Source of the DNA: an uncultured Bacteroidales bacterium
GTDB taxonomy: Bacteria; Bacteroidota; Bacteroidia; Bacteroidales; WCHB1-69
Reading direction: 5' to 3'
Length of the DNA stretch: 64,000 nucleotides
Assembly (NCBI GenBank): GCA_900315245.1
Contig: OMYJ01000006.1
Coordinates: forward strand, 199,572 to 263,571
Within the stretch, counting starts at the first letter, position 1. Every line of letters begins with the position of its first letter. The translations under genes and the position numbers were made by a program. The notes under the pieces were generated by a model, which was given only the letters and a program-made list of their open reading frames with translations, did no database searches and had not been told where the DNA came from. Below, one piece after another: positions 19,401 through 37,998 of this stretch.

Positions 19401-22400
19401 ATACCAGTATGACAATACGGTGCATACATACCCTGTGTGGGTCTTAAATTCCGATTTAGGCTACTATTCCACTGCGGAATACGATTTCCGTTTCGGCAAG
19501 CCGACGAAGACCACGGACATCAACGGAAATGAGATGTGGTACGAGTATGACAGCCTTGGCAGGACGGTGACCGTCACTGCGCCATACGAGCAGGGTGTAG
19601 CACCATACACCATCCGTATGGAATATTTCCCGCATAACTTCAAAAAACTGGATGTGTGGACCAATTGTTCCAATCCCTACTCCTATGCCTGTACTTACCA
19701 CTATGACAAACAACATCCGGGCAACCCCATCCGCACCACTCTCATCACAGACGGTTTGGGCAGGCTGCTGCAGACCAAAAAAGATGCAGAAATCGGTGGG
19801 CAGGAGGTCAGCCTTGTGACTGGAAAAGTGGTTTACGACTGTTTCGGCAGAACGGTGGAACAATATCACCCCTTCACCGAACCCTTGGGAACAGAAACCG
19901 TGTACAACAACACTGTCACAACAGGGACGGGAACTCTGACCGAGTATGACATGATGGACAGACAGACGAGGGTGAAACAACAGCCTTACGGGTATGAGAC
20001 TGTCATGGACTACGGTTTCGACTGGTGGAACGGTAAGACACTTTTCAGAACGGAGACTACGGATGCCAACGGAAACGTCTTCACCGAAATGAAAGGCACA
20101 CTGGGGCAACAGCTTGTCCAGATGCCTTCGACCACCAATGCCACGGAACTCTATTACGACGCTTTGGGACGTCTTACTGAAAGCATGGATGCCGAAGGTA
20201 TCTCCACCTACTATGAATACGACAGGTTGGGACGTATGACGCACCGAACCCATCCTGATGCAGGGGAGGACTGGTACAGCTTTGACCCCGCAGGCAATAC
20301 AGTTTACCACGTGAACGGCAACGGGGACACTGTTCGTTACAAATATTATTTCAATCTTCTCACTGCCATATCTTACCCGAATAATCCCGCCAACAATGTC
20401 CGTTATGTCTATGGTTCACCCACTGCACCCGATAATACAGCGGGCAAGATAGTCCTCCAGGAGGACGCCTCCGGCTGGCAGACATTCAAATATGGGAAAC
20501 TTGGCGAGGTGATTGAAAATATTCGTACTTTTGCGCTTCCTAACGAACCCCGTCCATATACGTTTAAAATGATATTCCGTTACGACAGCTGGAACCGCAT
20601 CGACAGTATGACCTACCCCGACGGGGAGGTGGTGAGCTATGGTTACAACAAGGGCGGAATGCTTGAAAACATACGGGGAAACAAGAACGGGGATTTGAGA
20701 ACGTATGTGGAGAGTATCCGCTATAACAAGTTTGAACTTAAAGAATCTGAGATATACGGCAATGCCACGTGGATGAGTTACGAGTACGATTCCCTGCTGC
20801 GCCTGTCGCACCTTTACAGCTGGGATTCACATGGGGACACCATGCAGAGCATCGGCTACACCTACGACTATGTGGGCAACATCACGGACATCGCCAACTC
20901 CGCCGTTACCTTGCCTAATGGTTTGGGCGGCCGCTACTACAGCCATTACGACTACGACCCGCTGTACCGGCTGACAGGTGCATACGGGGACTGGAACAAC
21001 AACCAGCTGTCGTATAACTTGGGGATGCAGTATTATGGGAACGGGAAAATATGGAGCAAGCAGCTGTACGCGGATGTGCTTGAACAAGGCAACGTCACCG
21101 TCAGGAATTACAACAACCGCTACTACTATGGCTCGTCAACATCGAATACTGTTGCGAGCGTATATGACCAGACTGGCCATGTGTGGCAGAGTTTCAGTTG
21201 GGACATGGCGGGCAACATGGTATATCACCAGGATGCCAACGGTTGCGGACGGACGCTCTGCTGGGACGAAGAGAACTGGCTGATGTCCTTTGCCGACTGC
21301 GAGAACGCGGGATTCTACCAATATGATGCCGGAGGGGAGCGCACCTACAAGCTCACCAGCGACTATGTGTCGCAGAACATCGGTGGCCATTGGCACACCT
21401 ACCAGGTGTTGGACAACCCCACGCTCTACACCTCACCTTATATGGTGGCCACTCCTAAAGGCTACACCAAGCACTACTATGCTGAAAGCGTGCGCGTGGC
21501 CAGCCGCATCGGCGGAGGCCTCGACTCTGTTGACATGTTCATCCGTAATATCGAAGAATTTATAGACAAGCCCATGGTGGAGATTTCCCCGTTATGGACA
21601 GACGATTACCACGAGGAATTTTTTGATGAAAAACGCGACCATAATCTGGACCACCTTTATCATGCGATGGAATGCACAGGAAATGTTCCCTCCGTTGTCT
21701 ATGAATGTCTGATTATTCTCCACAAATATAGCGACTACCCTCACCACGAGTATGAGCCCGATTGCTACTGGTACCACCCCGACCATCTTGGCAGTTCCTC
21801 CTGGATAACCTTCTCTGACGGTAAGGCCGTCCAGCATTTGCATTACCTCCCGTGGGGCGAGGATTTTGTGGACCAACGGACGAGCTCTTTCAGCTCAATG
21901 TACACATTTTCCGCAAAGGAGAAAGATACAGAAACTGGCTATTCCTACTTTGGCTCACGCTACTACAATTCAGACTTAAGCATTTGGTTGAGCGTGGATC
22001 CGATGGCAGCGAAATATCCTTCGTTGAGCCCGTATGTGTATTGCGCGGATAACCCTGTGAAGTTGGTGGACCCGAATGGGGAGGAAGTAAACCCTATTTT
22101 CAGTACTTGTGGTGAATTGTTAGGTACAGATAGCAAAGGGTGGAAAGGAACAGCTATAGTGATGGAAAAAAGAGATTTTAAAAATGGAATGAAACATGAG
22201 GATGCAATGGAAAAAGGGACTGAATTAGATAAATATGGGAAAGGCATTAATATTTCAGATTCTGACTGGGAAAAAGTTAAAGCAAATGGTGGAGAAAGGA
22301 TGTCGCCAACAGTGGAAAATCATAGCAACGAAGATGTTTACTTTAAACCAGAAACCGATATTGGAGACTGGAATAGTAATGATGCATATAAAATAGAAGC

Positions 22401-22668
22401 CGGAAAAGATTTGTATATGCCAGTTGATGGTGTCGCCACTTCAAAATATAATGATAATGTAGGTAAGATACCTACGGGCGCCACTGTTAAAATCACAAAG
22501 GAAGGAGGTCTCAATATAGATTTCCATGGATTTGGTGGGTTAATCAGATTACATCCAGATTATGGATGGGTTAATAAAAAATGGCAAAGAAAACAACAAA
22601 AAGCCGGAGACAGTTCTTGGGACAAATTGTTTAAAATGGCAGGTCAAATAGGAAGGAGGCCATATTAA
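13471..22668 (+). CDS. SpvB/TcB-like beta-propeller plus RHS-repeat (TcC-like) polymorphic toxin with a variable C-terminal toxin domain
   Basis: 3065 aa. The SpvB-type N-terminus is 'LSYPIEIPAGRQGMQPSLALTYSSGGGNGWLGVGWDISIPSITVETRWGVPRY'. FG-GAP-like 'D[LVMF]NGDGLxD' motifs recur. Many YD repeats are present ('YEYDSLGRTVTV', 'YYDALGRLTES', 'YEYDRLGRMTHRT'). The RHS core end is 'YYNSDLSIWLSVDPMAAKYPSLSPYVYCADNPVKLVDPNGEE', followed by about 195 aa of unrelated sequence. Confidence 0.9.
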   Translation: MRQYLLAVIAVLAAIILALFSIDTASNQQSARSYRAYNFKSGLESRAGDQGSALWNDNAENVNIPSITETVTDNGFSPLTIASSPLSTPPAMLATSAMTELTPVQLPPLDAGMVNVTGGFDGNSQTAGYRVNPRPGEFAIAVPYDPSLLPQGFTEDDIQTYVYDRQYHRWVAIQRDSVNEAELLVCSRFRPWEKGLPHTQNDLSNPQDALSQVQDMMSFASQGEGGGDSPLDFINAVLKTPEMPETSAYTPTSIKELKAADPLEGLTLMQPPTANNSGTANLSYPIEIPAGRQGMQPSLALTYSSGGGNGWLGVGWDISIPSITVETRWGVPRYDQSKESEVYVYEGEQLVTKDGNGNFREMPHRTNQWTSRSTLGNEEQFFPRKNEAFDSIVRHGTGPGNYWWTVTHKNGVTDYYGKYASDNGVNNSCVLRAGASNFTGAIAQWALAESVDPFGNSVRYHYDIEYHRGTTGSSNDGKQIYVDTIYYTTKGNDLGKYKVVFTREPKEDVIVSANRGFKEVTASNLCNIAVCFNNRAIRYYLFLTENNRASNFKTRLTDVVQLYKTSAGILPCSYLKELGVTDTLVSTHFDYYNYPETNQLFGDTVSLSLNDDDIKSTFITSGSALAKATALGGTRGKSWNIGGTMTVGIGPVVPLTTASVGGNFNYSRSKSEGALTLIDLDGDGLADKVYKKGHKLYFRKHIADSEYHFHYDAYEQELMDYSDIQNPRNLSDFLSEVSSTTTWGLQLSLGLAYSGSWPTTKSTTSVYFADVNADGLPDLITDGGVLFNVTEQDGEVKFRNYYTIAAENIGTDNDSAFVHTTTDTCGGIIFSGAVSDSIVCQYDWLLDTTLWLKPVYTLYDTADFLQVIRYADSLENTGEYKCEYYYYRNQPGQIERIDIYRKVLVSCSAFPTSTSASDILERDPDLEAVKVWVSPGYGQIDIISDIRQRQDSTTSFLQSKTRDGMSYAIQLNRNVLAAPNHRLLPSASANISILANGQIGKDDISVHHDSVRVSVSPGDLIFFRFISGDNHDYDNVNWNQSIRFNSGLAKPVVYNSAADYVLSGNKNFGAGAAGSTNKIDMSLKITTGNIGSTPNAVLLAMVVDTSDSVLTNCLWSCPLQSGWTNHEWNPLGTSTTTMQIAQGHQVKFMVSSSNPSFQWEKVRVTPHINYYVWNSNHYDTVECYPQVDMLINNYDGTVRDSVYHRLFGPLYKGWGQFAYNNNDTVNGHVVHDSYIHIEKLVTDWGGDIQNKKEARKTRRRMQRFDMPDKDSTHVRESSDMVGLYDADTLYNPLSLKTSWVEMQPDFHHYAWVGYGNVNYITDSIMCNTRIPDYHTDENTSDIEDYDHPVPVVAQGLDVKTVRKQNYSKMKNHSLSLSAPGVPFSVGGSVSLGYNQIITDYMDLNGDRYPDILGSSQVQYSQPWGGIGDVKTMAIFSNGVSRSETASGGMNFGGSFEMPSRGASNNPKNSKISFDGAGSIGASHGGGSDTTSMTWMDMNGDGLPDKVVRKNDKLEVQMNTGYGFLNIDTFDINNIRDGSSANTGLNVGGNFNIGQASIGGGIGVNFSKNETKKMLMDFNGDGLQDIVEDFGNSMKVSYNLGNGHWSAPEYVYAVPEISFGRSFSESADVSVTVGFTFMSIVKLCVGISGSPYSRTFSKDSVQLTDVNGDGYVDYVTSRNEGSMTVHYNQSGKTNLLRKVTNFTGSTIELGYDMPLACFNKPQRSWNLARVETRNNDTLCPVGGNRTLTKFQYASPRYNRHERMDYGYGKVTTYQYDTDGGDTLYRFTVEEFNNREFNKRGRKLRDCVYNSDSLPYVEHIYGDTLYDYAGSLVTDGGCARTDVYVKKEVDITNWYEGQPSPQITSMTQREYDRYRNVERYTHYGDITHTDEYFRAEIEYAQNMPHNMVSLPVRIEVYDINDTLLQLRSADYNPYTGRMTTLRLHNFSDTANYDFGYDSYGNMSGAAMPANARGQRLTMKYQYDNTVHTYPVWVLNSDLGYYSTAEYDFRFGKPTKTTDINGNEMWYEYDSLGRTVTVTAPYEQGVAPYTIRMEYFPHNFKKLDVWTNCSNPYSYACTYHYDKQHPGNPIRTTLITDGLGRLLQTKKDAEIGGQEVSLVTGKVVYDCFGRTVEQYHPFTEPLGTETVYNNTVTTGTGTLTEYDMMDRQTRVKQQPYGYETVMDYGFDWWNGKTLFRTETTDANGNVFTEMKGTLGQQLVQMPSTTNATELYYDALGRLTESMDAEGISTYYEYDRLGRMTHRTHPDAGEDWYSFDPAGNTVYHVNGNGDTVRYKYYFNLLTAISYPNNPANNVRYVYGSPTAPDNTAGKIVLQEDASGWQTFKYGKLGEVIENIRTFALPNEPRPYTFKMIFRYDSWNRIDSMTYPDGEVVSYGYNKGGMLENIRGNKNGDLRTYVESIRYNKFELKESEIYGNATWMSYEYDSLLRLSHLYSWDSHGDTMQSIGYTYDYVGNITDIANSAVTLPNGLGGRYYSHYDYDPLYRLTGAYGDWNNNQLSYNLGMQYYGNGKIWSKQLYADVLEQGNVTVRNYNNRYYYGSSTSNTVASVYDQTGHVWQSFSWDMAGNMVYHQDANGCGRTLCWDEENWLMSFADCENAGFYQYDAGGERTYKLTSDYVSQNIGGHWHTYQVLDNPTLYTSPYMVATPKGYTKHYYAESVRVASRIGGGLDSVDMFIRNIEEFIDKPMVEISPLWTDDYHEEFFDEKRDHNLDHLYHAMECTGNVPSVVYECLIILHKYSDYPHHEYEPDCYWYHPDHLGSSSWITFSDGKAVQHLHYLPWGEDFVDQRTSSFSSMYTFSAKEKDTETGYSYFGSRYYNSDLSIWLSVDPMAAKYPSLSPYVYCADNPVKLVDPNGEEVNPIFSTCGELLGTDSKGWKGTAIVMEKRDFKNGMKHEDAMEKGTELDKYGKGINISDSDWEKVKANGGERMSPTVENHSNEDVYFKPETDIGDWNSNDAYKIEAGKDLYMPVDGVATSKYNDNVGKIPTGATVKITKEGGLNIDFHGFGGLIRLHPDYGWVNKKWQRKQQKAGDSSWDKLFKMAGQIGRRPY

Positions 22669-24230: not shown

Positions 24231-24743
24231 TTACGTCGCCGACTCGCCGGCAACCGGAACGTATCCCATATTCCTTACTCTCATCTGCAATTCTGCCATC
24301 CGATTCATCAGCATGTCAAAATCCAGCGACTGACCGTAAATGAAGAAACGTCTCATGTTCGCGTAGTCAGCCTGCCATTCCTCTCTGTGCTGTTCCGGAA
24401 TCATAAAGTTGATGGTGGAGGGGGACAATAGAGCATAGTTGACATACTTCAAAGCATAATACGTCCTGCGATGCTCCACTATGGCATCGTAGAGCGTGCG
24501 GTTCGCCAAAGCGTCATGACCATATTGGGTGTCCATCAATTTCTCCAAATCATACAGGTGACGCGACACACGCACGCTTCTTGGCCTCTCCTTTTGGAAT
24601 TCTTCCGCCAGAAGGAACATCTTTTCCAAAAATGTGTGAGTTGGCAAAACTGTTTTCACCCTGCTCTCGGCATCGGTGTTTTCGGCAGGGATGTTGTCGC
24701 CAATCAGCGAGTGAGCATCGGTTTCACAATACGTTTCATCCAT
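24231..24743 (-). pseudogene. 5'-truncated AbiEii/AbiGii-family nucleotidyltransferase toxin remnant
   Basis: Only 170 aa. It keeps the C-terminal-type region ('FLEKMFLLAEEF', 'RHLYDLEKL') but has no N-terminal NTase motif. It overlaps the AbiEi gene by 40 nt. Confidence 0.5.
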
Positions 24744-25315
24744 GCAGGCATCATATCCACGTCCTTTGCCAGAGCATCCTTGTCGGGTTCCTTGGTGATG
24801 AGTTCACGAATCACCCGCAATTCATTATCCCCAACATTTTCTTGTTTTAATGTCTTAAAAGCCTGTACCATCAGACCGATAAGACGTGTCTCATAGCAGA
24901 AGTTCTTGGGAACACCTCTTTTTAGCTTGATTTGGCAATTGGCGAGTTTGATGGTGCGCTCACTGCCGGTGGTTAGATAGGAGTAATCCATTGGAACTTG
25001 GGTTGAAAGTCCTAGCACATTCAATGCCGTCATGCCTGAAGGCAGAACCTTTGCATTATCTCTATAAGCAATAGCTTGCACTATTTTATTAACCGACGGG
25101 AGCACAGTCCCGAATCTACTTTTTGCTGGCTTCGCATAGATGCCCTGGGCTAATTTCACCAGTACACCCTCATGTGTAAGTTCTGCCAAAGTCTCTCCAA
25201 CAAATTCGGGATGAAACTCTGGGAAATCGGAACGGAACAGCACGCTGTCATTTGGCAGGGCCTCAATACGTTCTCGAAGCGAAACTCCCTCATTGACAGA
25301 ATGTATCTTATTCAT
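24704..25315 (-). CDS. AbiEi-family (DUF6088-like) type IV antitoxin
   Basis: 203 aa. The overall pattern ('LAELTHEGVLVKLAQGIYAKP', 'LPSGMTALNVLGLSTQVP') resembles AbiEi antitoxins, and the gene is adjacent to the AbiEii remnant. Confidence 0.65.
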   Translation of the reverse strand: MNKIHSVNEGVSLRERIEALPNDSVLFRSDFPEFHPEFVGETLAELTHEGVLVKLAQGIYAKPAKSRFGTVLPSVNKIVQAIAYRDNAKVLPSGMTALNVLGLSTQVPMDYSYLTTGSERTIKLANCQIKLKRGVPKNFCYETRLIGLMVQAFKTLKQENVGDNELRVIRELITKEPDKDALAKDVDMMPAWMKRIVKPMLTR

Positions 25316-26859: not shown

Positions 26860-26874
26860 GTGTCCCCTCAGGGA
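26860..26874. repeat. att direct repeat (distal copy)
   Basis: 'gtgtcccctcaggga' is identical to 39922-39936, which lies inside the tRNA-Lys 3' end. Confidence 0.85.
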
Positions 26875-26996
26875 TAGTAACCGTTTTTCTAACCATATAA
26901 CTATCAATCTTATACTAAACATCTGCGAATATCATGCGCTTTTTATGGGCAATGTTGATATTATTTCCGGGATTTCGACTTTATTAACCATCGGTT

Positions 26997-27296
26997 TCAT
27001 CCCACCACCTTTCCCCGTCCACTTTGCCTTTTATCCGCTTCACTTTGTCCTGTTATTCTTATTCTGGCCACTGCCGCCCGTCCACTTTGCCTTTTCCCGA
27101 CTTGCCTTGTTTTGGCTTTCCGGGTCAAGCCACTGCCGCCCGTCCACTTTGCCTTTCCCTGTCTCGCCTTGTTTGACGTTCCTGGTCCGGCCACTGCCGC
27201 CCGTCCACTTTGCCTTTCCCTGACTCGCCTTGTTTGACGTTCCTGGTCCGGCCACTGCCGCCCGTCCACTTTGCCTTTCCCCGCTATCTAAAATAG
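26997..27296. repeat. 61-62-nt tandem array (about 4 good copies plus a degenerate one), each with a CCACTTTGCC box
   Basis: Unit starts at 27067, 27129, 27190 and 27251 give periods of 62, 61 and 61. Boxes lie at 27019, 27082, 27144, 27205 and 27266. The period is not a multiple of 3. Confidence 0.85.
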
Positions 27297-27297
27297 A

Positions 27298-27320
27298 AAT
27301 GCGGCTTAAAGCCGCATTTC
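27298..27320. terminator. bidirectional-type hairpin
   Basis: 'aaatgcggc-ttaaa-gccgcattt' is flanked by A and T runs. Confidence 0.5.
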
Positions 27321-27509
27321 TAGCAAACCCACTAAAAAAAACAAGATGATTCACTCATCACGATTACGTTGCCTCTGTTTGGATCTCTAATCGTTCTGAT
27401 TTATTTTAATTTATTATGTTTTAATCCACTCTATCTTTCTTAAAGCCTAAGGTGGTTTTAGGATACGTTTCTGTTTTTCGTATCCTTTTTTCTTTCTTTT
27501 TACCATGTC

Positions 27510-27848
27510 TTATTTGAAAATTTCAGGGTATTCTTCTTCATACCCCTCGTACGTTTTTCTGTAATGCTCTGCCCAGTCATAGGGAGCTATTTCGTTACTC
27601 GGTTTGATTTCTTCCAATATTTTTGGGTCGTATCCTCGCATAATGTCCGAAAGGTTTCTTACCTTCTCATCGCGATACATGGCCACCAATGCGTCAGTAG
27701 GTGTTGCCGCGCGTATTTCATTGGTATCGAACCCCATCTTCCTACAGCGTCTTTCCCATTCCGCCCATGTTTCCTTGTTGCTCTTCGTTGGGAATTCCTT
27801 AAATGGGAATCCCATTTCTTTTTTCTCTTTTTCGGTTAATTCTGCCAT
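27510..27848 (-). CDS. hypothetical island protein
   Basis: 112-aa ORF with a coding-like composition. No motif was recognised. Confidence 0.45.
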   Translation of the reverse strand: MAELTEKEKKEMGFPFKEFPTKSNKETWAEWERRCRKMGFDTNEIRAATPTDALVAMYRDEKVRNLSDIMRGYDPKILEEIKPSNEIAPYDWAEHYRKTYEGYEEEYPEIFK

Positions 27849-27914
27849 TTTTTTTAGTTTTTGATTTTTATTCTATTGTTTTCTGTACTTTTATCTCTTC
27901 TTCGTGTTGAATTC

Positions 27915-28319
27915 TTATTTTTTGCTCTTCATTATCGAAACGGGTGTGTCTATTTTTTTCATTATCTCGTAGGCCTCTTTCGTTCGCACTTTCCAACAGC
28001 CGTTAATCTTCACGAATCTTGTTCTTACTCCATGATTGGTCGCCAGCTGGTAAAAATTATGATTCGTTTTGCCCATCATGGCAGCGCAATACGATATGTC
28101 GGTGTATTCAGGTGTTCTTACATGTTTTTTGTGCGGATCTATTTTCTTCAACCCATTTATGATCAAATACACGTCATTCACATTGTAATATATATTCCTT
28201 CCAATTTTCACCTCTTCACATCCCCAGTTCTTGGCGTTTTTCCTCACCCTCTCGTTTTGTTGTTTTGTCAGCCCGTAAATCTTTACAATTTCGGTTAATG
28301 ATATATAGCCCTGTTTCAT
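27915..28319 (-). CDS. excisionase/MerR-type HTH protein (two HTH-like halves)
   Basis: 'YISLTEIVKIYGLTKQQNERVRKNAK...' and 'ISYCAAMMGKTNHNFYQLATNHGVRT' both look HTH-like. A TATTTTTG box lies on the minus strand at 28358-28365, upstream of the start. Confidence 0.5.
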   Translation of the reverse strand: MKQGYISLTEIVKIYGLTKQQNERVRKNAKNWGCEEVKIGRNIYYNVNDVYLIINGLKKIDPHKKHVRTPEYTDISYCAAMMGKTNHNFYQLATNHGVRTRFVKINGCWKVRTKEAYEIMKKIDTPVSIMKSKK

Positions 28320-28888
28320 ATTCCTTTTTTGTTTGTCTTACACATTAAAGACTTCGGCAAAAATAGCAATTACCTTTCTCGAGGTTTGGGAAGTCTATTT
28401 TTTTCTTCCAAACGTTCATCTCTGCTTTGCTCATTTCCTTTTCATTCCCTCTCTTTTATTTTCCTTCATCTTTATTCAATTTTTTCTTCATTGTTATTTT
28501 ATCGTCTCATAACTTGATGTATATCACTTTTTAAGCTCGGCGCGCATAACGCGCCGATACTTCTTGTATGAAGTCACCCGCCTCACGCCCTACCCCGTCG
28601 GGCGCGCGCCCTTACTCTTTTAGACGCAAATATGAGAGCCGCCACGGTGACAGACAGGAGCCACCACGGAGACTGTGAACACGGCGTGTCCGCTCGATAG
28701 CGGTTGCCAGGTGGCTGCCTGGTGTCGGCGGCCACTGTCCCCATCATCGTAGCCGGTGGCGGTGCAGGTGGTGACAGGTGCGCGGTTCTGACCTGTGGAC
28801 TGGGTGGCCGTGGATGCGGCCGCCATCGGTGCGCTGCTCGATATCGGTTGCCAGGTGGCTGCCTGGTGTCAGCGGCCACCATCGTAGC

Positions 28889-29010
28889 CAAATGACGGCG
28901 TAGGTGGTTAATAGTGCAGTAGGAAAGATAAAAAATCCAAATCTCAACTATCAAAAAGACTGAAAAAGTCATTTTGGGCTAAATTGTCAATCGTTTATTG
29001 TGTTTTTTTG
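28889..29010 (-). repeat. AT-rich conserved inter-cassette spacer/leader, copy 1
   Basis: About 122 nt, near-identical to 29568-29690. The minus strand carries 'TTTG...TATCTTTC', a promoter-like sequence with an imperfect -7 box. Confidence 0.8.
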
Positions 29011-29567
29011 TAGCCGGTGACAGGTGCGCGGTTCTGACCTGTGGACTGGGTGGCCGTGGATGCGGCCGCCATCGGTGCGCTGCTCGATAGCGGTTGCCGG
29101 GGGGTCGCCCGGTGTCGGCGGCCACTGTCCCCACCATCGTAGCCGGTGACGGTGCAGGTGGTGACAGGTGCGCGGCTCTGTTCCGTGGACTGGGTGGCCG
29201 TGGGTGTGGCCGCCATCGGTGCGCTGCTCGATAGCGGTTGCCAGGTGGCTGCCTGGTGTCGGCGGCCACTGTCCCCATCATCGTAGCCGGTGGCGGTGCA
29301 GGTGGTGACAGTGTGCGCGGCTCTGTTCCGTGGACTGGGTGGCCGTGGATGCGGCCGCCATCGGTGCGCTGATCGATAGCGGTTGCCGGGGTGTCGCCTG
29401 GTGTCGGCGGCCACTGTCCCCACCACTGTAGCCGGTGGCGGTGCAGGTGGTGACGGGTGCGCGGCTCTGTTCCGTGGACTGGGTGGCCGTGGATGCGGCC
29501 GCCATCGGTGCGCTGATCGATAGCGGTTGCCAGGTGGCTGCCTGGTGTCAGCGGCCACCATCGTAGC

Positions 29568-29690
29568 CAAATGACGGCGTAGGTGGTTAATAGTGCAGTA
29601 GGAAAGATAAAAAAAACCAAATCTCAACTATCAAAAAGACTGAAAAAGTCATTTTGGGCTAAATTGTCAATAGTTCATCGTGTTTTTTTG
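29568..29690 (-). repeat. AT-rich conserved inter-cassette spacer/leader, copy 2
   Basis: See copy 1. The two copies differ by a few substitutions and a different-length A/T run. Confidence 0.8.
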
Positions 29691-30184
29691 TAGCCGGTGA
29701 CAGGTGCGCGGTTCTGATCCGTGGACTGGGTGGCCGTAGGTGTGGCCGCCATCGGTGCGCTGCTCGATAGCGGTTGCCAGGGTGTCGCCCGGTGTCGGCG
29801 GCCACCGTCCACACCATCGTAGCCGGTGACGGTGCAGGTGGTGACAGGTGCGCCGCTCTGATCCGGGAACTGGGTGGCCGTGGATGTGGCCGCCTTGGGT
29901 GCGCTGCTCGATAGTGTTTGACTGGCTGCAGCTCGGTGCCAGTGGCCACCATCGTAGCCGGTGACAGGGTGCGCGGTTCTGATCCGTGGACTGGGTGGCC
30001 GTGGGTGTGGCCGCCTTGGGTGCGCTGCTCGATAGTGGCTACCTGGTTGCCGTCCGGTGTCTTCGGCCACCGCCACCCTTCCACTTTGCCTTACAGACAT
30101 CATCCATATTAGTTAAATTTCAACATTGATTCTGGTTTTATTTTTGCGCTGTGAAGTTCCGAAAAAAAACTTTTTGACTTTTTT

Positions 30185-30455
30185 CTGTTACTCTGTTACC
30201 CTGTTACTTTTGCATTCGTTCAACATTGATTCACAGAACGATAACAAGGTAACAGAGCGGTAACAGTTTAAACGATCTTTCTGTTACCTGTCCGTTACTG
30301 CTCTGTTACCCATTCATCTACACTTCCAAATAGGTAACAGAAACTGTTTCTGTTACCCTTCTGTTACCTCTCTGTTACCTTATCTGTTACTTTATTATAT
30401 TTCATTATATCAAACACTTACACAAATAACATCTTATTTGGTAACAGAGTAACAG
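30185..30455. repeat. iteron cluster (CTGTTAC heptamers), putative origin of replication
   Basis: My hand count gives at least 14 perfect copies, 9 forward and 5 inverted, within about 270 nt. The cluster lies immediately 3' of the primase-helicase gene. Confidence 0.7.
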
Positions 30456-30548
30456 AGATTTTATAAAACTAAAGTTTTTTAGAATAAACATTTTTGATTG
30501 TTAACCCTTTCCCGAACGAACATATAGCACTTTTAATAATATCATTAC

Positions 30549-30577
30549 AAAAAAAGACGGCTTATTATAGCCGCCTT
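30549..30577 (-). terminator. terminator of the primase-helicase gene
   Basis: On the minus strand, 'aggcggct-ataata-agccgtct' is followed by TTTTTTT, about 25 nt after the stop. Confidence 0.6.
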
Positions 30578-30599
30578 TCTATATCAACAAGATCTTGTT

Positions 30600-33428
30600 T
30601 CAATATGTTATTTGTTCCCTTTCGTAATCCTTAACTTCCGCGCCTTTGCTTTGTATATACACCATTTCTTTAACTTCTTTATTTACTTTGATTTGAATAC
30701 TACGCCGATATTCTCTATACCCCGTACATTCTCGCGGGTTTATTTTCTCTATATATTCTTTTGATTGGCAAAAATATCGTAATTTTTCCATAAATCCTCT
30801 TGTATCTATCTTTTTTGCAGCCTGTTTGTTGTACTCATCCAACAAATCTTCTCTTATCAGATAGGTATTTAAATTATCGCTCTCTTTTGCGAATTTAGCT
30901 TCTGCCCACATCATGAAATTATCTCCTGCAACCTGTATAGCTATTCTTTCTTTTATTCTTTCCATTGGCGGCTGAATCACCACACCCTCTTTTTCCGCCT
31001 TCAGATAGAACGAAACGCAATCCATCAAAAAATTAAGATCTTCGTTCCAATACTCATCTGTATATCTTTTATCATTCTCATCACATATTCTATACCCGAA
31101 ATCATGATTTATCTTTCTTTCCTCGTTATATTCGCTTGTTCCAGCATGATAATAATCACTGAATATGCAAAACAACAACCTCCTTAAAGTGCTTCCTTCT
31201 GTTGTTCTTGGTGGAAAATTTGATGTCACAACGATTTTTGGTGATTGCTCAAATGGTATTGTGTATGGGGCTTTATATAGAGGCCGCGCCATCCAGTCTC
31301 CTGTCGTTTTTTCAAACAAAGGTCTTATCGGATAGCCTCTGTTAGCATCTGCAATCACAAAAGTAGTCGTCCTCGTTGTTACATTTGATCCAAAATGTTT
31401 CCCGCTTGGGTTTCCCGCCTCACAACTTCCATCCGCCTGCTCTTTATTGATCAATGGTTTTAATAGGAAATCCACTAAAAAGGATTTGCCAGACCCTCCA
31501 CTACTCTCGCTCTCGTCTGTAAGTTTATTTTCCATCAACCATGTAATATACCCATTTGTTGGAGATTTGTAAGAGTGCAACAAATATCCGATAACATACA
31601 ACCTATTTATCAGAGTCTGTTTTTGCTCCTCCTGTTCTGCTGTTCCAAGTCTCGTCCCTGCTATATCCCATTTATGTTTTTCTTTATAATCTTCATCAAC
31701 AAATCCACCATCCGCCGGTTCTTTCTCCCCGCCTTCCAGTTCCTTTCTCCAATGGATTCTACTTGAATTTATGTTAGCTCTAAATCCATGGCTTTTGATG
31801 TTCTTAATCTCTATATCAAACTTTTTTCTTTCAGAATCATATTTTGTTTCAAACGCTGGTTCTATTCTTGTGAAACGGTGGTGACATACTTTGTCTTTCC
31901 AAATATAACCGGCTTCCTCCTTGGCCATAGTCTTCACGTTGTCGGCCGATACTTTAACGGAACAATTTTCAAACGTGAATATTTGTTCCGTTTCGGTGCC
32001 ATTTTTGAAAGGTACCTTTATTTCATTCAGTTTATCCAACAAGTCTGATTGAATCTTTTTACAGTCCAGGATCGCGTTTCTTATCTCGCTTTCTAACCCT
32101 CTTTCCATCGCCCACCTGTGTAAATTGTCCGCCACCTCCTTTTCTGAAACCTCTTCAACCTCATTATTGGTAACTTTCACGTATAAATACGATATTGCTC
32201 CGGGTTTTGTCTGTAGTTTTATTTTCCCATAACCCATATAGTTGAGTATATGCAACAAATAAGACGTGTTTATTTTGTCTTGTTTGCTCCTTTTCAGATC
32301 CCAAAACTTACAAGGCATTGCAACGTTAACCAATCTGTTGAAATCCTTTGCCGAATTATATTCCAAATAATCCCGCAAGTCTTTACATGGATTGCCGCGC
32401 CGGTCGTGTTGCCTTCTTAGTTCGTCAGGTAGTTCTACAGTGTAGATGTCCAGGTACTTTAAAGCCAGCTTACGCCCCTGCCTTATCCCGGTTTCGTCTA
32501 TATCCGGGATATTGTACAAGCGTTCCACACACTTCATGATTTCGGCGTATTGTTCGCCTGTCAGCTTTGCCGATTCTGAATTAAGCCATATTGGATTGTA
32601 GCCCATCGCGGCCACACATAGCGCGTCACGCTCCCCGCTGCACAAAAAAGCCGCTTCCAGTTTTCGTGGCGGGCGGTTCTGCTGGTTGCTACCTTCTGCG
32701 TGATCCTCCTGTTCCGCCGCTTCGCTTCCGCTTTGTGATAGTGCTTTAAAGGCGGCTTTGAGTTCCGCCAGGCCGTTCACGTAGTCTTTCGTCTTCTTAT
32801 CTCTTGGACGGTATTGGAAACGGTTGTTTTTGTCTTTGCTATAAGGCTCGTATATCTTGTAAAAATCCCCGCAATCATGCATGAAGATTGGGTAATTATC
32901 CGTACTGCTTTTCTTCATGCGCTTTTTCTCGCCAGTTTCCTTGTCCGTATAGATGAACGAATACGATTTCAACGACTTGTAGGAATACCGCTCGCAAACT
33001 TCCTCCGTCAGCCCCGGTGCCAACAAGTTAAGTTCCGAATTGGTGAAACTTTCTTTTGCCTCAAACTCGAAACCGTCACCAGCTGTATCCTCTTGAACGG
33101 TTGACACCTCAATATTCGGTTTCCTGTCAAGACTTTCTTTCCCGTTGATATGAAAATGAGCCTCCAATTCTTCAAGGGCTTGCGTGTATTCCACATTATT
33201 CTTTTCTATATACAGTTTAATCGGCTCGCCCCCGCCCCCTCCGAAATCGTTTGCGTACCAAATGCCTTTTTCATTCTGCTTGCATCCTGTCGATGGTGTA
33301 CGCTCATCCCTTATTTTGAATTTGTGGTTGGGATTGTTTTTGCATTCCGCCGCCTCCGGGTATAGCATTGTTATTATATCAAAACCATTGTCGGTGGCAT
33401 CATAAATGGCTTGTTCTCTTTCGTTCAT
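30600..33428 (-). CDS. Toprim-domain DNA primase fused to a P-loop (SF3/D5-like) helicase
   Basis: 942 aa. The Toprim-like region is 'AFLCSGERDALCVAAMGYNPIWLNS...YNIPDIDETGIRQG'. The Walker A is 'SSGGSGKSFLVDFLL' and the Walker B-like segment is 'FVIADAN'. Confidence 0.8.
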   Translation of the reverse strand: MNEREQAIYDATDNGFDIITMLYPEAAECKNNPNHKFKIRDERTPSTGCKQNEKGIWYANDFGGGGGEPIKLYIEKNNVEYTQALEELEAHFHINGKESLDRKPNIEVSTVQEDTAGDGFEFEAKESFTNSELNLLAPGLTEEVCERYSYKSLKSYSFIYTDKETGEKKRMKKSSTDNYPIFMHDCGDFYKIYEPYSKDKNNRFQYRPRDKKTKDYVNGLAELKAAFKALSQSGSEAAEQEDHAEGSNQQNRPPRKLEAAFLCSGERDALCVAAMGYNPIWLNSESAKLTGEQYAEIMKCVERLYNIPDIDETGIRQGRKLALKYLDIYTVELPDELRRQHDRRGNPCKDLRDYLEYNSAKDFNRLVNVAMPCKFWDLKRSKQDKINTSYLLHILNYMGYGKIKLQTKPGAISYLYVKVTNNEVEEVSEKEVADNLHRWAMERGLESEIRNAILDCKKIQSDLLDKLNEIKVPFKNGTETEQIFTFENCSVKVSADNVKTMAKEEAGYIWKDKVCHHRFTRIEPAFETKYDSERKKFDIEIKNIKSHGFRANINSSRIHWRKELEGGEKEPADGGFVDEDYKEKHKWDIAGTRLGTAEQEEQKQTLINRLYVIGYLLHSYKSPTNGYITWLMENKLTDESESSGGSGKSFLVDFLLKPLINKEQADGSCEAGNPSGKHFGSNVTTRTTTFVIADANRGYPIRPLFEKTTGDWMARPLYKAPYTIPFEQSPKIVVTSNFPPRTTEGSTLRRLLFCIFSDYYHAGTSEYNEERKINHDFGYRICDENDKRYTDEYWNEDLNFLMDCVSFYLKAEKEGVVIQPPMERIKERIAIQVAGDNFMMWAEAKFAKESDNLNTYLIREDLLDEYNKQAAKKIDTRGFMEKLRYFCQSKEYIEKINPRECTGYREYRRSIQIKVNKEVKEMVYIQSKGAEVKDYEREQITY

Positions 33429-33476
33429 CGTTTTTTCAATTTCAGTTTTGGTTTCGGTTTTCGGCTGCTCTTTCCT

Positions 33477-33965
33477 TTACGCCTCGATTGTTCTGTCTTC
33501 GATATACTTGTACAAATCGCGTTTCCTGATCCGCGTTCCGTATGTTTTGGTTTCGGAATCAAGTCGGCTGTCCGGGTCTTCGTTTTTGATAATATCGTAG
33601 ATCAATGAGGGTGATACGTCCAGGATTCCCGCCGCGCTCATCACGGAAATCTTTTCGGGTACATGCTGCATCCATACGTCTTTCAAGTTTTCGCGCTCCG
33701 TTTCTGATATATTCATCATGGCCAGCACCTCCGAAAACTTGTATCTCACAACGGTTGGGTTTTCCCTCGTTCCTGCCAGCTGCACACGTGAAAGTTTATA
33801 AGCCCCGGATTTCATACGGTCATATACTGTCCGGCGGCCAACTTCCAAAAGCTGTGCCACTGTATCGATTTTCACTAACCGCTCATCATGTTCACGGCCA
33901 AGGTTTACCGTTCTGCTGATTTCATCCGCTTTCAGCGGTCTGATCTTGTTGTTTGCTTTTCTCAT
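33477..33965 (-). CDS. excisionase-type double-HTH DNA-binding protein (candidate Xis/regulator)
   Basis: The start is taken at 'MRKANNKIRP'. The two HTH-like halves are 'KIDTVAQLLEVGRRTVYDRMKSG' and 'SVMSAAGILDVSPSLIYDIIKN'. Confidence 0.55.
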   Translation of the reverse strand: MRKANNKIRPLKADEISRTVNLGREHDERLVKIDTVAQLLEVGRRTVYDRMKSGAYKLSRVQLAGTRENPTVVRYKFSEVLAMMNISETERENLKDVWMQHVPEKISVMSAAGILDVSPSLIYDIIKNEDPDSRLDSETKTYGTRIRKRDLYKYIEDRTIEA

Positions 33966-34078
33966 TGCTTTACTTTTTTTGGTTTTTAATTCTTTTATGG
34001 GTGCAAAAATACCGCTGCCTTTTCTTATTCGTTGGGACAACGGTTTTTCTTACCCTTTAACTTGTTGATTTACACCGT

Positions 34079-34360
34079 CTATTGGTTCCTGTCGGATATA
34101 AAGACTATGTATTTCAACCATAACAAGTTTGGTTTGCGAATTTTGAACAAGTCTGTTTTGACTTCTATAACATCATTCGCTATCATTTCGTTTTGCTTCG
34201 GCCTCCATGTACCAATATAACTGTCATTCAGGTAAAGCAAAAAACAATCCGTTGCTTTTTGGAACTGATACACCCTGTCTTCCAAATCACTGAATATGGT
34301 GAACGGATCGCCCTCTTGCAAGCGGGTGTAGATTCTTTCTTTTTCTTCAATAGTCATCAT
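34079..34360 (-). CDS. hypothetical protein sharing a domain with the C-terminus of 34702-35346
   Basis: 'FLLYLNDSYIGTWRPKQNE...LLWLKYIVF' parallels 'FDLFLNETKVGRWKPNKFEE...LLWLKDVEF'. Confidence 0.45.
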   Translation of the reverse strand: MMTIEEKERIYTRLQEGDPFTIFSDLEDRVYQFQKATDCFLLYLNDSYIGTWRPKQNEMIANDVIEVKTDLFKIRKPNLLWLKYIVFISDRNQ

Positions 34361-34427
34361 TTTTCCGGTTTTTTAGGGGTTCATTTGAAAATTTCCGGCA
34401 AAACTATTCTATTTATTTTTATGTTTC

Positions 34428-34503
34428 GGCAATTGTCGCCCCATTATGGGGTGACATTTGAATTATGGGGTGATTATTGCCCCATAATGGGGTAACAATT
34501 GGG
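34428..34503 (+). promoter_or_regulatory. 76-nt palindrome module (GCCCCATAATGGGGT x2 plus a half-site), copy 1
   Basis: It lies just upstream, in the minus sense, of a TAGTTTTG -7 box (34399-34406) and of the 34360 start. Copy 2 is at 39619-39694. Confidence 0.6.
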
Positions 34504-34701
34504 TTGATGTCGGTTGTGGAAAAAGGGCGTGGGCAATCTCTTTTTGAAAGTTGGCCGATTGCGGTGGCCTCCGCTCCGTGCGCTGGTCTTGAATATAAAA
34601 TTGTGCCATTCATTTGCCCTTTTGTGTTTTGGTTTGTACTCCGTTAATTACGCGCCACACCCTTTGATCCGTAACCGATACTGTTTCTATTACCTTTCTG
34701 T

Positions 34702-35346
34702 TTATAAATCAGTTTTCACTCTCCCCTTTTTATGTTTTTTAAGATCTCGCTTTTCTGAATCTTTCACAAACTCGACATCTTTCAGCCATAATAGTTCTGA
34801 GCTTTCGTATTGTCCAAGAGTGGCAATGTTTACCAGTATGAAATTTTGGCCTTCTTCAAATTTATTGGGTTTCCATCTGCCTACTTTTGTTTCATTCAGG
34901 AATAGGTCAAAATCTGCCTCACCCTTTTTGTAACCGATACGCCATACTTGCCCTGCGTTTTTCCCTTTCACTTTGAACTCTTCTCCATCACGCAGCCTCT
35001 CAAGTATCTTGTCTCTTTTTTCTTTTCTAATTGCTTTTGGGGAATGGTAATTTTTTAATTCAGCCTTTAAATCCGGTTTTGGGTAGTGGTTTCTTATTAA
35101 TTCAGCCTTGTTATCCCGCAATTCCTTGAATACGCTTTTATACCAATCCAGCGCATCAAACATTGTCATAATAGCTGAATCTTTCAAGTAAGATGTATCT
35201 TCCATTACTTTGGCCTTGGTGATACTTAAAATAGCTATTTCTAACCTTTCAATCATCACACCGCCCCAATTGTCATATTCGGCGTTTTCCCCTTTTCCTG
35301 GTTCGAATGTTTCAACAAGTGTCTTACTCTTTTTAAAATCAATCAT
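34702..35346 (-). CDS. paralog 3 of an island-specific small-protein family, with a C-terminal extension
   Basis: The start is at 'MIDFKKSKTLVETFEPGKGENAEYDNWGG'. It overlaps the previous stop by 8 nt. Confidence 0.5.
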   Translation of the reverse strand: MIDFKKSKTLVETFEPGKGENAEYDNWGGVMIERLEIAILSITKAKVMEDTSYLKDSAIMTMFDALDWYKSVFKELRDNKAELIRNHYPKPDLKAELKNYHSPKAIRKEKRDKILERLRDGEEFKVKGKNAGQVWRIGYKKGEADFDLFLNETKVGRWKPNKFEEGQNFILVNIATLGQYESSELLWLKDVEFVKDSEKRDLKKHKKGRVKTDL

Positions 35347-35608
35347 TGTCGGCCTCCTTTCCTTTTTCCTGTTCTTCATCCAGTTCTTTGAATACTGTTT
35401 CAAACCAATCCACCACATCACATAAACTTGTAACATCATTGTGTTTTATATACACGGTGTCTTTCAGGTATATAGCTTTGGTGATGTCAACCAATACGTC
35501 TTTCAGTCCGTTGAACATTATACCACCCCAGTTATCCCGGTTGGGTTCCACGCCACTGCCTTTTGTGAACGTTTCTTCCAGTGTCTTGCTTTCGCTAAAT
35601 TTACGCAT
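35339..35608 (-). CDS. paralog 2 of the island-specific small acidic protein family
   Basis: 'MRKFSESKTLEETFTKGSGVEPNRDNWGG...'. There are 8-nt start/stop overlaps on both sides. Confidence 0.5.
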   Translation of the reverse strand: MRKFSESKTLEETFTKGSGVEPNRDNWGGIMFNGLKDVLVDITKAIYLKDTVYIKHNDVTSLCDVVDWFETVFKELDEEQEKGKEADND

Positions 35609-35870
35609 TGCGCACCTCCTTTCCTTCTTCCTGTTCTTCTTCCAATTCGTTGAACACGGCTTCAAACCATTCCATCACGTCGCATAAACTTATTACATCT
35701 TCGTTTTTTATAAACACGGTATCTTTCAGGTATATAGCTTTGGTGATGTCAACCAATACGCCATTCAGTCTTTTGAGCATATCACCGCCCCAGTTGTCCC
35801 GGTTGGGTTCTTTGCCAACGCCTTTTGTGAAAGTTTCTTCCAGTGTCTTGCTTTCGCTAAATTTACGCAT
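35601..35870 (-). CDS. paralog 1 of the island-specific small acidic protein family
   Basis: 'MRKFSESKTLEETFTKGVGKEPNRDNWGG...ELEEEQEEGKE'. Confidence 0.5.
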   Translation of the reverse strand: MRKFSESKTLEETFTKGVGKEPNRDNWGGDMLKRLNGVLVDITKAIYLKDTVFIKNEDVISLCDVMEWFEAVFNELEEEQEEGKEVRNA

Positions 35871-36048
35871 TGCGCACCTCCTTTCCGTATGCACAATGTA
35901 GCGCGTTCTTGCTCACCCTGCTTTTCAATCCAGGGTTGAAAGGGTTTTGATTTTGGAATTGTGTGTGGTCTGCTCCGGGTGTGCCGCTCATCGCGCCGCC
36001 CTGGTTGCCGGTGTTGTTCCGGCTTTCATCGTTTTTGTAGGGAAACAT
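35863..36048 (-). CDS. small hypothetical protein (uncertain)
   Basis: A 61-aa reading from 'MFPYKNDESRNNTGNQGG'. Its stop overlaps the start of paralog 1. Confidence 0.25.
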   Translation of the reverse strand: MFPYKNDESRNNTGNQGGAMSGTPGADHTQFQNQNPFNPGLKSRVSKNALHCAYGKEVRNA

Positions 36049-36063
36049 GTTGATTACCTCCAC

Positions 36064-36141
36064 GGAAAAAACGCGGGTCTGTCTCGGTCTTATAACAGTA
36101 CCGGCAACCGCCTTCCGACGGCTGCAACCCGCGTTTTTTCC
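36064..36141 (-). other. long-range 14-bp stem enclosing about 50 nt, a possible structured 5' leader
   Basis: 'ggaaaaaacgcggg' (36064-36077) pairs with 'cccgcgttttttcc' (36128-36141). A TATTTTTG box lies on the minus strand near 36190. Confidence 0.4.
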
Positions 36142-36250
36142 TGTATGGTATTTCAATATACATTGAAGTTATAAGTTAAAGACGCGGCAAAAATACAATT
36201 TTGCACACGTACGTATGTGTCACGTATAAGAAATTTACCAACAGTTTGAT

Positions 36251-36280
36251 GTTGAAACCGCCCCGGGGTGTCCGGGGCGG
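36251..36280 (-). terminator. terminator of 36309-37379
   Basis: A 9-bp GC stem CCGCCCCGG/CCGGGGCGG with a 5-nt loop is followed on the minus strand by TTTC. Confidence 0.55.
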
Positions 36281-36308
36281 CTGCTTATTCGTCTTGTTTC
36301 TGCGTGCC

Positions 36309-37379: not shown

Positions 37380-37402
37380 ATTAAACAAATTTGATCCGGC
37401 GG

Positions 37403-37410
37403 CAAAGATA
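37403..37410 (-). promoter_or_regulatory. Bacteroidetes-type -7 box TATCTTTG
   Basis: It is part of the reused cassette 'TATCTTTGCCGCCGGATCAAATTTG'. Confidence 0.55.
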
Positions 37411-37480
37411 GTAATTTTGCACACATACGGAAATCAGAAAAGCAACCGCCCAGCGGTGTTGCCGGGCGGTGTGTGGTTTT

Positions 37481-37756
37481 TCAAAACAGGTCGGAATGGG
37501 TGCCGGTTCTTACAAGGGTTACAAGTTTTATCTGCTTGTCCTTACTGTATATCAATAACCAGTCGGAATGCACGTGGCATTCCCTGCACCCTTTGTAATT
37601 CCCTTTCAACGGATGGTCTTTGAGTTCGGGCGGCAATTCCTTTCCTTCTGCCAGCATACCCACAACGCCCAAAAGTTCTTCAACGTCCAGGCCTCGTGCT
37701 TTGGCCTTTGCCACGTCTTTCATATACTTCTTTGTGGCCTCAATCCTATAACTCAT
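37481..37756 (-). CDS. YafQ/RelE-family type II toxin (mRNA interferase)
   Basis: 91 aa. 'KKYMKDVAKAKARGLD...LKDHPLKGNYKGCRECHVHSDWLLIY...VRTGTHSDLF' matches the YafQ pattern as I recall it. Confidence 0.75.
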   Translation of the reverse strand: MSYRIEATKKYMKDVAKAKARGLDVEELLGVVGMLAEGKELPPELKDHPLKGNYKGCRECHVHSDWLLIYSKDKQIKLVTLVRTGTHSDLF

Positions 37757-37973
37757 ACATTGCTTTTTTGAAGTCGTCGAAAGAATTGAATTTCACCGTG
37801 TCGCCGCGCCTCATTTCCTCAATGGCCTGCGCGGTCTCCATGGCCGCCGCCGTGGGTTTGTCCGTGGTGTCGGTCGCGCTGTCCTGGAACTTCACTCCCA
37901 GCTCCCGCAATGCCTGAACCAAAAGACTTATTGCAGCGTTGTTCTGATCGTAGCTTAATGTTACTGTTGTCAT
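37746..37973 (-). CDS. putative antitoxin
   Basis: The start is at 'MTTVTLSYDQ'. It overlaps the toxin start by 11 nt, and a TATCTTTG box lies at 37999-38006. Confidence 0.5.
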   Translation of the reverse strand: MTTVTLSYDQNNAAISLLVQALRELGVKFQDSATDTTDKPTAAAMETAQAIEEMRRGDTVKFNSFDDFKKAMYEL

Positions 37974-37998
37974 ACTTTTCTCAAATTTGATCCGGCTG

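Follow-up and report, generated by a model that had tools for sequence, protein, structure and literature searches.

Introduction

What is a block of very GC-rich tandem repeats doing beside the origin of a small integrated island? The question is raised by the array at 28690-30100 of a 64,000-nt stretch of contig OMYJ01000006.1 from an uncultured Bacteroidales bacterium (the whole stretch is here referred to as the window). The immediate flanks of this array have 31.6% and 35.1% G+C, while its repeats reach 66-70%. An earlier sequence-only reading of the window had described the array and proposed several roles for it. Our analysis firmly supports the conclusion that the array is the variable-number, GC-rich middle of a conserved, non-coding module adjoining the origin. 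Relatives of the island and viral contigs are cited below by locus number (L005 and so on).

Organization of the repeat array

The array consists of three cassettes with units of 129-145 nt, parted by two spacers of 33% G+C. In minus-strand order, the region contains the following features.

30160-30460 (approximate), no strand: iteron region of the origin, with CTGTTAC/GTAACAG repeats and A/T tracts, between the primase gene and the array
30101-30159, minus strand: leader from the iterons to the first cassette, with A/T tracts, GCGCAAAAA and the GAATCAATGTTGA box
29691-30100, minus strand: cassette C, 66.3% G+C; three units, the first opening with motif M (30065-30092)
29568-29690, minus strand: AT-rich spacer 2, 123 nt, 33.3% G+C; leader-like, with a promoter-like TTTG-N22-TATCTTTC of the Bacteroidetes type
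29011-29567, minus strand: cassette B, 69.7% G+C; four units of 129, 144, 145 and 135 nt
28889-29010, minus strand: AT-rich spacer 1, 122 nt, 32.8% G+C; same promoter-like motif as spacer 2
28690-28888, minus strand: cassette A, 67.8% G+C; 1.5 units

The arrays were detected by Tandem Repeats Finder, and 8.5 units were recovered with this program together with an nhmmer profile. The spacing of the GTAGCC anchor gives unit lengths of 135 nt in cassette A, of 129, 144, 145 and 135 nt in B, and of 129 and 135 nt in C. The extra base of units B3 and C3 falls in one shared alignment column, and most indels among the window units are multiples of three. Composition, anchors and unit alignment confirm the layout, coordinates, unit lengths and +1 sites given by the sequence-only reading, and the promoter-like motif that it had noticed is present in both spacers. 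Each unit opens with an M-like stretch, and M itself heads the first unit of cassette C.

The two spacers are 96% identical (four substitutions and one indel) and similar to the leader; a promoter-like TTTG-N-TAnnTTTG occurs in both, and in the spacer of L087. Because they resemble the leader and carry the promoter-like motif, the three cassettes look like a triplication of leader and array ahead of a single 3' element. Each spacer also has one GAACTATTGACAA / AACGATTGACAA box (around 28985-29000 and 29665-29680), similar to the 14-nt box GAATCAATGTTGA, which is present twice on the minus strand of the origin region (30119-30132 and 30219-30232); this suggests that the spacers are diverged copies of the leader.

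The primase gene and the array are separated by iterons and A/T tracts that, to judge from their sequence, form an origin. A position beside iterons and A/T tracts is found in the window, L087, L005, L006, L090 and all viral members described below. The tie of the array to an iteron origin, as first proposed, is thus borne out, the array adjoining CTGTTAC iterons at about 30160-30460. The iteron words differ at the same position in relatives (GGTAACAG in L005 and AATCACAGAA in L090), which is consistent with co-evolution of iterons and primase. The order of primase gene, iterons and GC-rich region is kept in L090 (3150-3450) and in L005 (12960-13260), the words being GGTAACAG in L005 and CTGTTAC in the window.

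A conserved element 3' of the array

The array is followed by a conserved stretch, which was first revealed by contigs of relatives that start just past the array. On the minus strand it comprises, in order, a tail, TCATATTTGCG, hairpin P1, the invariant GGGTAGGGCGTGAGGCGGGYGACTTCATA, hairpins P2 and P3, and a box.

28636-28689, minus strand: conserved tail from the array to the 3' element, seen in alignments
28535-28635, minus strand: conserved 3' element, kept across satellite and viral members
28625-28635, minus strand: TCATATTTGCG, first part of the 3' element
28600-28611, minus strand: hairpin P1 of the 3' element, the GC palindrome GGGCGCGCGCCC
28575-28599, minus strand: invariant G-rich stretch within the GGGTAGGGCGTGAGGCGGGYGACTTCATA region, between P1 and P2
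28559-28574, minus strand: small hairpin P2 of the 3' element
28537-28557, minus strand: terminator-like hairpin P3, TCGGCGCG-N4-CGCGCCGA, from a terminator scan and alignments
28489-28504, minus strand: conserved box CGATAAAATAACAATG, at the same distance in the window, L087, L111 and L113, and read as ATAAAATAACAAT in L128

The box (ATAAAATAACAATG), about 50 nt 3' of P3, is the last part of the conserved minus-strand stretch. Compensatory changes, one or more per hairpin, are present in P1, P2 and P3 in a set of ten distinct sequences. In the three hairpins together, eight pairs are changed on both sides, a count reached by none of 500 shuffles. Moreover, the true register pairs in 87% of cells, as against 36-54% for shifted registers, and the fold of the whole element has z = -2 to -5. 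P3 is followed by T4-T8 in viral members, and its place is taken in L120 and L137 by another stem that also has a T-run, which looks as expected of a terminator. A search of the window for a target complementary to the invariant G-rich stretch matched only the 3' element itself.

Recurrence of the module in relatives and viral contigs

We scanned the IMG/VR collection of viral contigs for exact matches to parts of the invariant stretch. The 29-nt motif GGGTAGGGCGTGAGGCGGGYGACTTCATA matched four loci in two lineages, and the 17-mer GGTAGGGCGTGAGGCGG matched 11 true member loci in five lineages. At least five viral lineages therefore carry the module, namely L111/L112/L117, L113/L114, L128/L129/L141, L120 and L137/L145. 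TCATATTT stands at a near-fixed distance from GGTAGGGCGTGAGGCGG, which is 1 nt shorter in L120. Every true viral member has an AT-rich iteron-like region, then a leader GTCGCGCAAAATCG...GCAAAAA, then a GC-rich tandem array and then the 3' element. The periods of these arrays (35, 47, 49/50 and roughly 60 nt) are unlike that of the window array and unlike one another. The earlier view that the array belongs with the origin holds, but it had missed the conserved 3' element and the leader, which recur in unrelated viral contigs.

The carriers have little else in common. By tblastn, island proteins showed no similarity to the viral carrier contigs at E <= 1e-3, and among 30 open reading frames (ORFs) scanned on viral contigs only one, an integrase, matched a family of known function. 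Most matches of GGTAGGGCGTGAGGCGG in the viral collection belong to an unrelated phage gene and were rejected (L115, L116, L118, L122-L127, L130, L131, L133, L134, L136, L138-L140, L142 and L144). In these unrelated contigs the 17-mer lies within a well-conserved coding gene, in the context ...CTCGAGCGGCTCGCGGA-17mer-GTGCTGAAGTTGCC..., and we took this as coincidence. L146-L149 are chance matches, and so, in our judgement, are the single-match hits of array 17- and 18-mers in the same collection. Nor is the module tied to the primase family: 80 metagenome loci with primases of 35-42% identity have iterons and neither a GC-rich array nor the 3' element.

Among relatives of the island, the array varies most. 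In L087 the primase protein is identical to that of the window and the DNA is 95.6% identical up to the first unit. In the L087 array, two units are followed by a different AT-rich spacer and then by about four further units, the periods being 120, 121 and 137 nt, and the array is 70-85% identical to that of the window, compared with 95.6% for the adjacent primase DNA. L005 and L006 are near-identical to each other and represent more distant islands (primase 75% identical). Near-identical copies differ by single units: the near-identical relative L107 has 0.5 unit in cassette A where the window has 1.5, L111 and L112 have four and five units of 35 nt between flanks that are 99.5-100% identical, and L128/L129 and L141 have four and three units of 47 nt. 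Within each locus the units are homogenised, and arrays diverge faster than the sequence on either side. What they keep is composition. In all lineages the arrays have 65-75% G+C, set in elements of 40-52% G+C and beside regions of about 30% G+C, and high G+C with near-absent T or A on the sense strand recurs across them.

The worry that the array is an assembly artefact can be dismissed, for parts of it or a complete variant are present in the independent assemblies L087, L088, L089, L107 and L108. All island-relative short-read contigs examined break off in the array, save L087, whose array is complete; the metagenome contigs L005, L006, L088, L089, L090, L107, L108 and L109 stop within the array or at its edge. 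In this island family, assemblies thus break systematically at the GC-rich array.

The open frames of the cassettes

Minus-strand ORFs of 129-213 aa traverse the cassettes, and those started in the spacers have hydrophobic N-termini. Together with window-unit indels that are mostly multiples of three, these features speak for the proposal of the sequence-only reading that the cassettes encode a secreted, hypervariable repeat protein rich in Pro/Arg, His or Ser/Thr, its frame switched at +1 contingency sites. The description of minus-strand frames as open and plus-strand frames as closed agrees with our counts of stop triplets (two per cassette on the minus strand; 17, 15 and 5 on the plus strand), but this openness is no sign of coding, being predicted by composition. 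The units on the minus strand have 9% T. Over three frames they contain 0-1 stops per unit, as against 1.5-2.1 in dinucleotide shuffles (P = 0.07-0.5). Because T is so scarce and shuffles carry nearly as few stops, we regard the open frames as an effect of composition.

Moreover, relatives do not keep the frame. Their unit periods of 35, 47, 49/50, 121 and 137 nt are not multiples of three (120 nt is also seen), and the period in the window is 145 nt. The frame in which array unit 2 is read in L087 is not that of the window, and a 1-nt difference separates L005 from L006 at the would-be start, both having stops in all frames. Pfam gave no match for seven array ORFs. A search of 5.8 billion proteins with all three frames as queries gave none either, a result to which the composition filter of HMMER possibly contributed.

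The hydrophobic stretch and Arg-rich tail noted earlier at the end of cassette A, a would-be C-terminal anchor, proved to be the translation of the nucleotide-conserved hairpin element: GGGCGCGCGCCC reads as RARA, and GGT AGG GCG TGA as GRA and a stop. A TGA interrupts this '...LIFA...GRA' frame in L087, and in L109 and L120 the frame comes to an early end. First, second and third codon positions are all invariant, which indicates that the constraint lies at the nucleotide level. A second frame through the 3' element, 'SYLR...GVGREAGDFIQ', meets a stop in the window and a frameshift in L120, and it would cross the terminator. Frames, periods, the compositional scarcity of stops and the empty homologue searches thus rule out the repeat protein with contingency frameshifts, and the cassettes are non-coding.

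Comparison with known classes of repeats

The units were then considered as folded RNA. Single units fold with z = -0.8 to -1.5 on both strands, and whole arrays mostly with z = +0.35 to -2.3, the outlier being a 202-nt segment of the window around cassette A (-3.6, plus strand). RNAalifold found no compensatory pairs in 14 units from the window and L087 (covariation term -0.12). Some units do have the CCAGG-N6-CCTGG hairpin of the sequence-only reading, but in 7 of the 14 the two central bases do not pair, and the compensated case of the hairpin carries little weight: a three-helix structure made of this hairpin and two further inverted repeats has one double change, which was equalled by 208 of 500 shuffles. 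With no covariation and with stability near that of shuffles, apart from the one segment at -3.6, the reading of each unit as a folded RNA module is rejected, and the proposal of a structured repeat RNA has no support at the unit level.

We also looked for a motif common to all arrays, including the Chi-like GCTGGTGG, and rejected it: shared k-mers are no commoner than in shuffles (8 observed, 16 +/- 4 expected). Inverted homology between array classes is weak (z = 1.5-3.8). No partition domain of the ParA/ParB type was found among island proteins. Neither the shared repeated motif nor the genes of a partition site were thus found, which tells against, without refuting, the centromere or incompatibility array of the sequence-only reading.

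Two further classes share the outline of an array on a mobile element. First, CRISPR arrays likewise have an AT-rich leader and then a repeat array variable among relatives. In the module, however, units run head to tail without unique spacers, repeats are far longer, cas genes are absent and no Cas domain occurs among the island proteins. Second, the ToxI arrays of type III toxin-antitoxin systems (ToxIN, CptIN, TenpIN) are tandem direct repeats on mobile elements with a family-variable repeat sequence, a promoter upstream and a hairpin terminator downstream, the last two being putative in the module. Of a ToxIN-like layout, the array and a terminator-like hairpin were observed, with promoter-like motifs in the spacers only. 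ToxI repeats, at about 34-40 nt, are A/U-rich and almost exact copies of one another, and a ToxN-family endoribonuclease gene follows them, whereas the module has units of 35-145 nt, 65-75% G+C, a conserved 3' domain and no ToxN/AbiQ-type gene directly downstream. Its neighbour in the island encodes a 134-aa predicted winged-helix protein, and the gene next to the module is convergent in the viral contigs L111 and L113.

Phage leader RNAs offer another likeness. The lambda PR'-6S RNA-tR' and HK022 put RNA are short non-coding units of temperate phages with conserved hairpins, and each stops at a terminator that precedes a long operon. They have no tandem array; the module, for its part, has no identified antiterminator gene and no similarity to them in sequence or in Rfam. 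In Rfam, tRNA-Lys was the sole match in the window, and scans of the array, the 3' element and L117 at E <= 10 gave only chance-level matches. Searches with blastn of phage and plasmid collections gave no match, and literature searches found no description of the module. These results, with those of Pfam and the 5.8-billion-protein search, agree with the earlier statement that the array belongs to no known family, non-coding RNA or DNA element; the module is undescribed in Rfam, the databases and the literature. It lacks what defines ToxI-type arrays, CRISPR, repeat proteins and partition sites, and with origin accessories it shares position only.

A second shared array

A second repeat, motif M, accompanies the module on the same strand. 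It is repeated 5-7 times, 1.3-4.5 kb downstream of the module, in the window, L107 and viral members. In the window island it sits 140-420 bp from attR. The arrays found by repeat matches are as follows.

Window 27010-27290, minus strand, near attR: five to six copies of AAGGCAAAGTGGACGGGCGGCAGTGGCC (core GCAAAGTGGACGGG, two direct half-sites) at about 61-nt spacing
L107 1510-1850, downstream of the module: M array
L108 2080-2190, at the 3' end: M array
L111 8710-8860: M array
L113 5724-5860: M array
L129 898-1070, same strand, downstream of the module: M array
L141 75-250, same strand, downstream of the module: M array

The spacing is 33 nt in L111, L113/L114, L129 and L141, and in L111 and L113 the array lies within an ORF. 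M as an arm site of the integrase is unlikely, since it is absent from the attL side.

What the module may do

We tentatively favour the reading that the module is a non-coding RNA unit whose 3' domain is functional and whose repeat body is unconstrained in sequence, although we would put its chances at somewhat less than even. A transcribed unit is preferred because of the putative terminator, the motifs resembling promoters and the fact that the conserved parts all face one way. The anatomy, the lack of coding, the conserved flanks, the compensated hairpins, the one-unit differences in length and the recurrence in unrelated elements are shown; transcription, its direction and the role of the module we infer. 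The minus-strand unit would start in the A/T-tract leader beside the iterons and pass through the GC-rich repeats, being restarted twice by the duplicated leader-like spacer with its promoter-like motif. It would end in the tail and the 3' domain, where TCATATTTGCG is followed by three hairpins around the invariant G-rich single-stranded stretch and the last hairpin would act as an intrinsic terminator. The 3' domain would be the working part, and a factor common to all carriers, from either the host or a helper phage, would recognise it. Selection on the array would act on length, GC-richness, strand asymmetry and repetition only, and not on sequence. The array would therefore turn over by slippage and unequal recombination. 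Its role may be that of a scaffold or spacer, possibly a C-rich loading platform for Rho.

Several observations weigh against an RNA unit. First, array skew flips between members while the conserved flanks stay as they are: the window, L087, L005, L120 and L137 have C/A-rich, T-poor arrays, and L111, L113 and L128 have arrays rich in G/T and poor in A. An RNA with a functional body should not tolerate such a flip, so it fits a property of duplex DNA better. Second, L137 has a terminator-like hairpin directly upstream of the array, with no room for a promoter. Third, the island copies of P3, including that of the window, have no T-run on the sense side (GCTTAAAAA), and the scan tool calls a terminator on the opposite strand. 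Fourth, the trusted hairpin changes are Watson-Crick, so that they fit RNA and single-stranded DNA, and either strand, alike, and the covariation comes from only about ten distinct sequences.

A DNA-level role at the origin is rated only slightly below the RNA unit, and we regard it as possible though doubtful. Here the module would be an origin accessory, the GC-rich array acting as a thermodynamic clamp or buffer beside the A/T-tract unwinding region and the hairpins as a priming or helicase-loading signal on single-stranded DNA for a host enzyme, by analogy with the ssi signals beside the RSF1010 iterons or with a G4-type origin. The iteron plasmids RK2 and RSF1010 do have a GC-rich segment beside an AT-rich region, and their oriV (with ssiA/ssiB in RSF1010) resembles the module in the order of iterons, A/T-rich region, GC-rich segment and conserved hairpins. 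The module always adjoins an AT-rich iteron-like region, whatever the iteron or replication protein (window, L005, L090, viral contigs). The free orientation of the array skew is expected of a duplex property, the compensatory hairpins flank an invariant unpaired stretch, and the weak terminator of the island copies and the terminator ahead of the L137 array also speak for this role. So does the 3' element being common to elements with unrelated replication genes, which at the same time sets it apart from ssi signals, read by the plasmid's own primase. The known GC-rich origin segments, however, are tens of bp long (about 30-60 bp in RK2 and RSF1010) and unrepeated, whereas that of the module is a long tandem array. 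Moreover, the T-runs 3' of P3 on one strand in viral members suggest transcription termination, and the promoter-like motifs in the AT-rich spacers within the array likewise suggest transcription.

A wider proposal is that the module and the GCAAAGTGGACGGG arrays form a new class of origin-linked cis or RNA system in temperate elements of Bacteroidales. They would be the sole sequence common to a satellite-like island and unrelated phages and would couple the replication, expression or packaging of the island to a helper, with the array as a fast-evolving determinant of specificity or dosage. We consider this unlikely. Less likely again is a reading in which module and M array are cis handles common to helper phage and satellite, as a packaging site or a late-operon control with a read-through terminator. 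Satellites with nothing but cis elements in common with their helper are known, and the satellite P4 and the phage P2 have cos in common. In our carriers the 3' element and M-type arrays (core GCAAAGTGGACGGG) keep the same relative order and strand, yet no protein similarity is found by tblastn; no virion gene is recognised in the island, and in L113 a long plus-strand gene block follows the module in the same orientation. Geminivirus satellites are reported to have only the origin in common with their helper (PMC12193555). Against such handles, no terminase, capsid or antiterminator gene is recognisable in any carrier. The viral contigs, which are fragments, have no terminal repeats, and none ends at the 3' element, which is internal. 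The arrays are also wholly different between carriers and therefore cannot be a shared recognition site.

We judge it very unlikely that the arrays are neutral or selfish minisatellites produced by slippage at a replication-proximal site, with only the flanking conserved elements functional. The differences of exactly one unit between near-identical copies, the complete turnover of arrays between lineages and the want of any common motif beyond composition or of a structure signal in the arrays would all follow. Bacterial variable-number tandem repeats, or contingency repeats, likewise differ by whole units between near-identical copies and are homogenised within a locus, but they are usually of 1-10 nt and lie inside genes or promoters, whereas the GC-rich units of 35-145 nt are framed by a conserved structured element. 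Neutral sequence in such elements should drift to AT and be lost, yet an array of 65-75% G+C stands at this exact position in every lineage, and extreme depletion of A or T recurs independently. Finally, the repeat protein discussed above retains next to no chance.

The island and its other genes

The island carrying the module sits in a tRNA gene, and its recognised genes are all on the minus strand.

26860-39936, minus-strand genes: integrated 13.1-kb island, bounded by a 15-bp direct repeat of the tRNA-Lys 3' end at 39922-39936 and 26860-26874
39922-39995: tRNA-Lys(CTT)
30600-33428, minus strand: primase-helicase-like replication protein, 942 aa; homologues with DUF5906, alignment-invariant motifs CSGERD and GGSGKS
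27915-28319, minus strand: 134-aa gene, 3' of the module in every island relative; predicted tandem winged-helix DNA-binding protein

Besides the 942-aa protein, the minus-strand genes encode an integrase with an arm-binding domain, a RelE/YafQ-type toxin, an excisionase-like helix-turn-helix (HTH) protein, probably of 187 aa, two unannotated proteins of 371 and 245 aa, and small proteins of 134 and 112 aa. Domain searches of the island proteins recognised no virion gene. From its gene set, its origin and this lack of a recognised virion gene, the element has the look of a small island that integrates and replicates itself, and it may be a phage satellite. The toxin gene and an overlapping upstream small ORF, likely its antitoxin (37481-37756 and 37746-38033, minus strand), occur as the same pair in L087.

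The 134-aa protein has no family in Pfam, PHROGs, NCBIfam or PADLOC, and its 112-aa neighbour none in Pfam, PADLOC or NCBIfam. AlphaFold gave the former a pLDDT of 80-87 in the N-terminal domain and 64.6 overall, from a shallow alignment, and predicts two tandem winged-helix domains of excisionase/MerR-like type. The best fold match in PDB is TraN (4pm3), a DNA-binding protein of type IV secretion systems, with a probability of 0.97 and a low TM-score. The protein is only 66-70% identical among relatives, while the 3' stretch upstream of its gene stays unvaried. Its gene lies between the GC-rich array and the M array, and from the predicted fold we infer, at most, a candidate for binding M at its pair of direct half-sites.

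Outside the island, a DUF6088 / AbiEi-antitoxin-like gene (24704-25315, minus strand) lies near the attR flank, between the island and a host thiL-like region, and a 3065-aa ORF (13471-22668, plus strand) lies in a stretch of 50-57% G+C.

Significance

Mobile elements of gut Bacteroidales are abundant and poorly annotated. A practical caution follows from the cassettes, in that long 'ORFs' open in all frames of GC-rich repeats in AT-rich elements are compositional artefacts. The array could also explain why these islands break short-read assemblies. The constant presence of the module beside the origin, across elements without detectable protein similarity, points to a shared dependency on a host or a helper, which could link satellites to their helpers and help to find origins. 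If the module acts as DNA, origin architecture would gain a new element. If it acts as RNA, it would represent a new family in which a sequence-free repeat body is joined to an invariant 3' domain. Should either the RNA reading or the one of handles shared by helper and satellite be true, the module would be new in kind.

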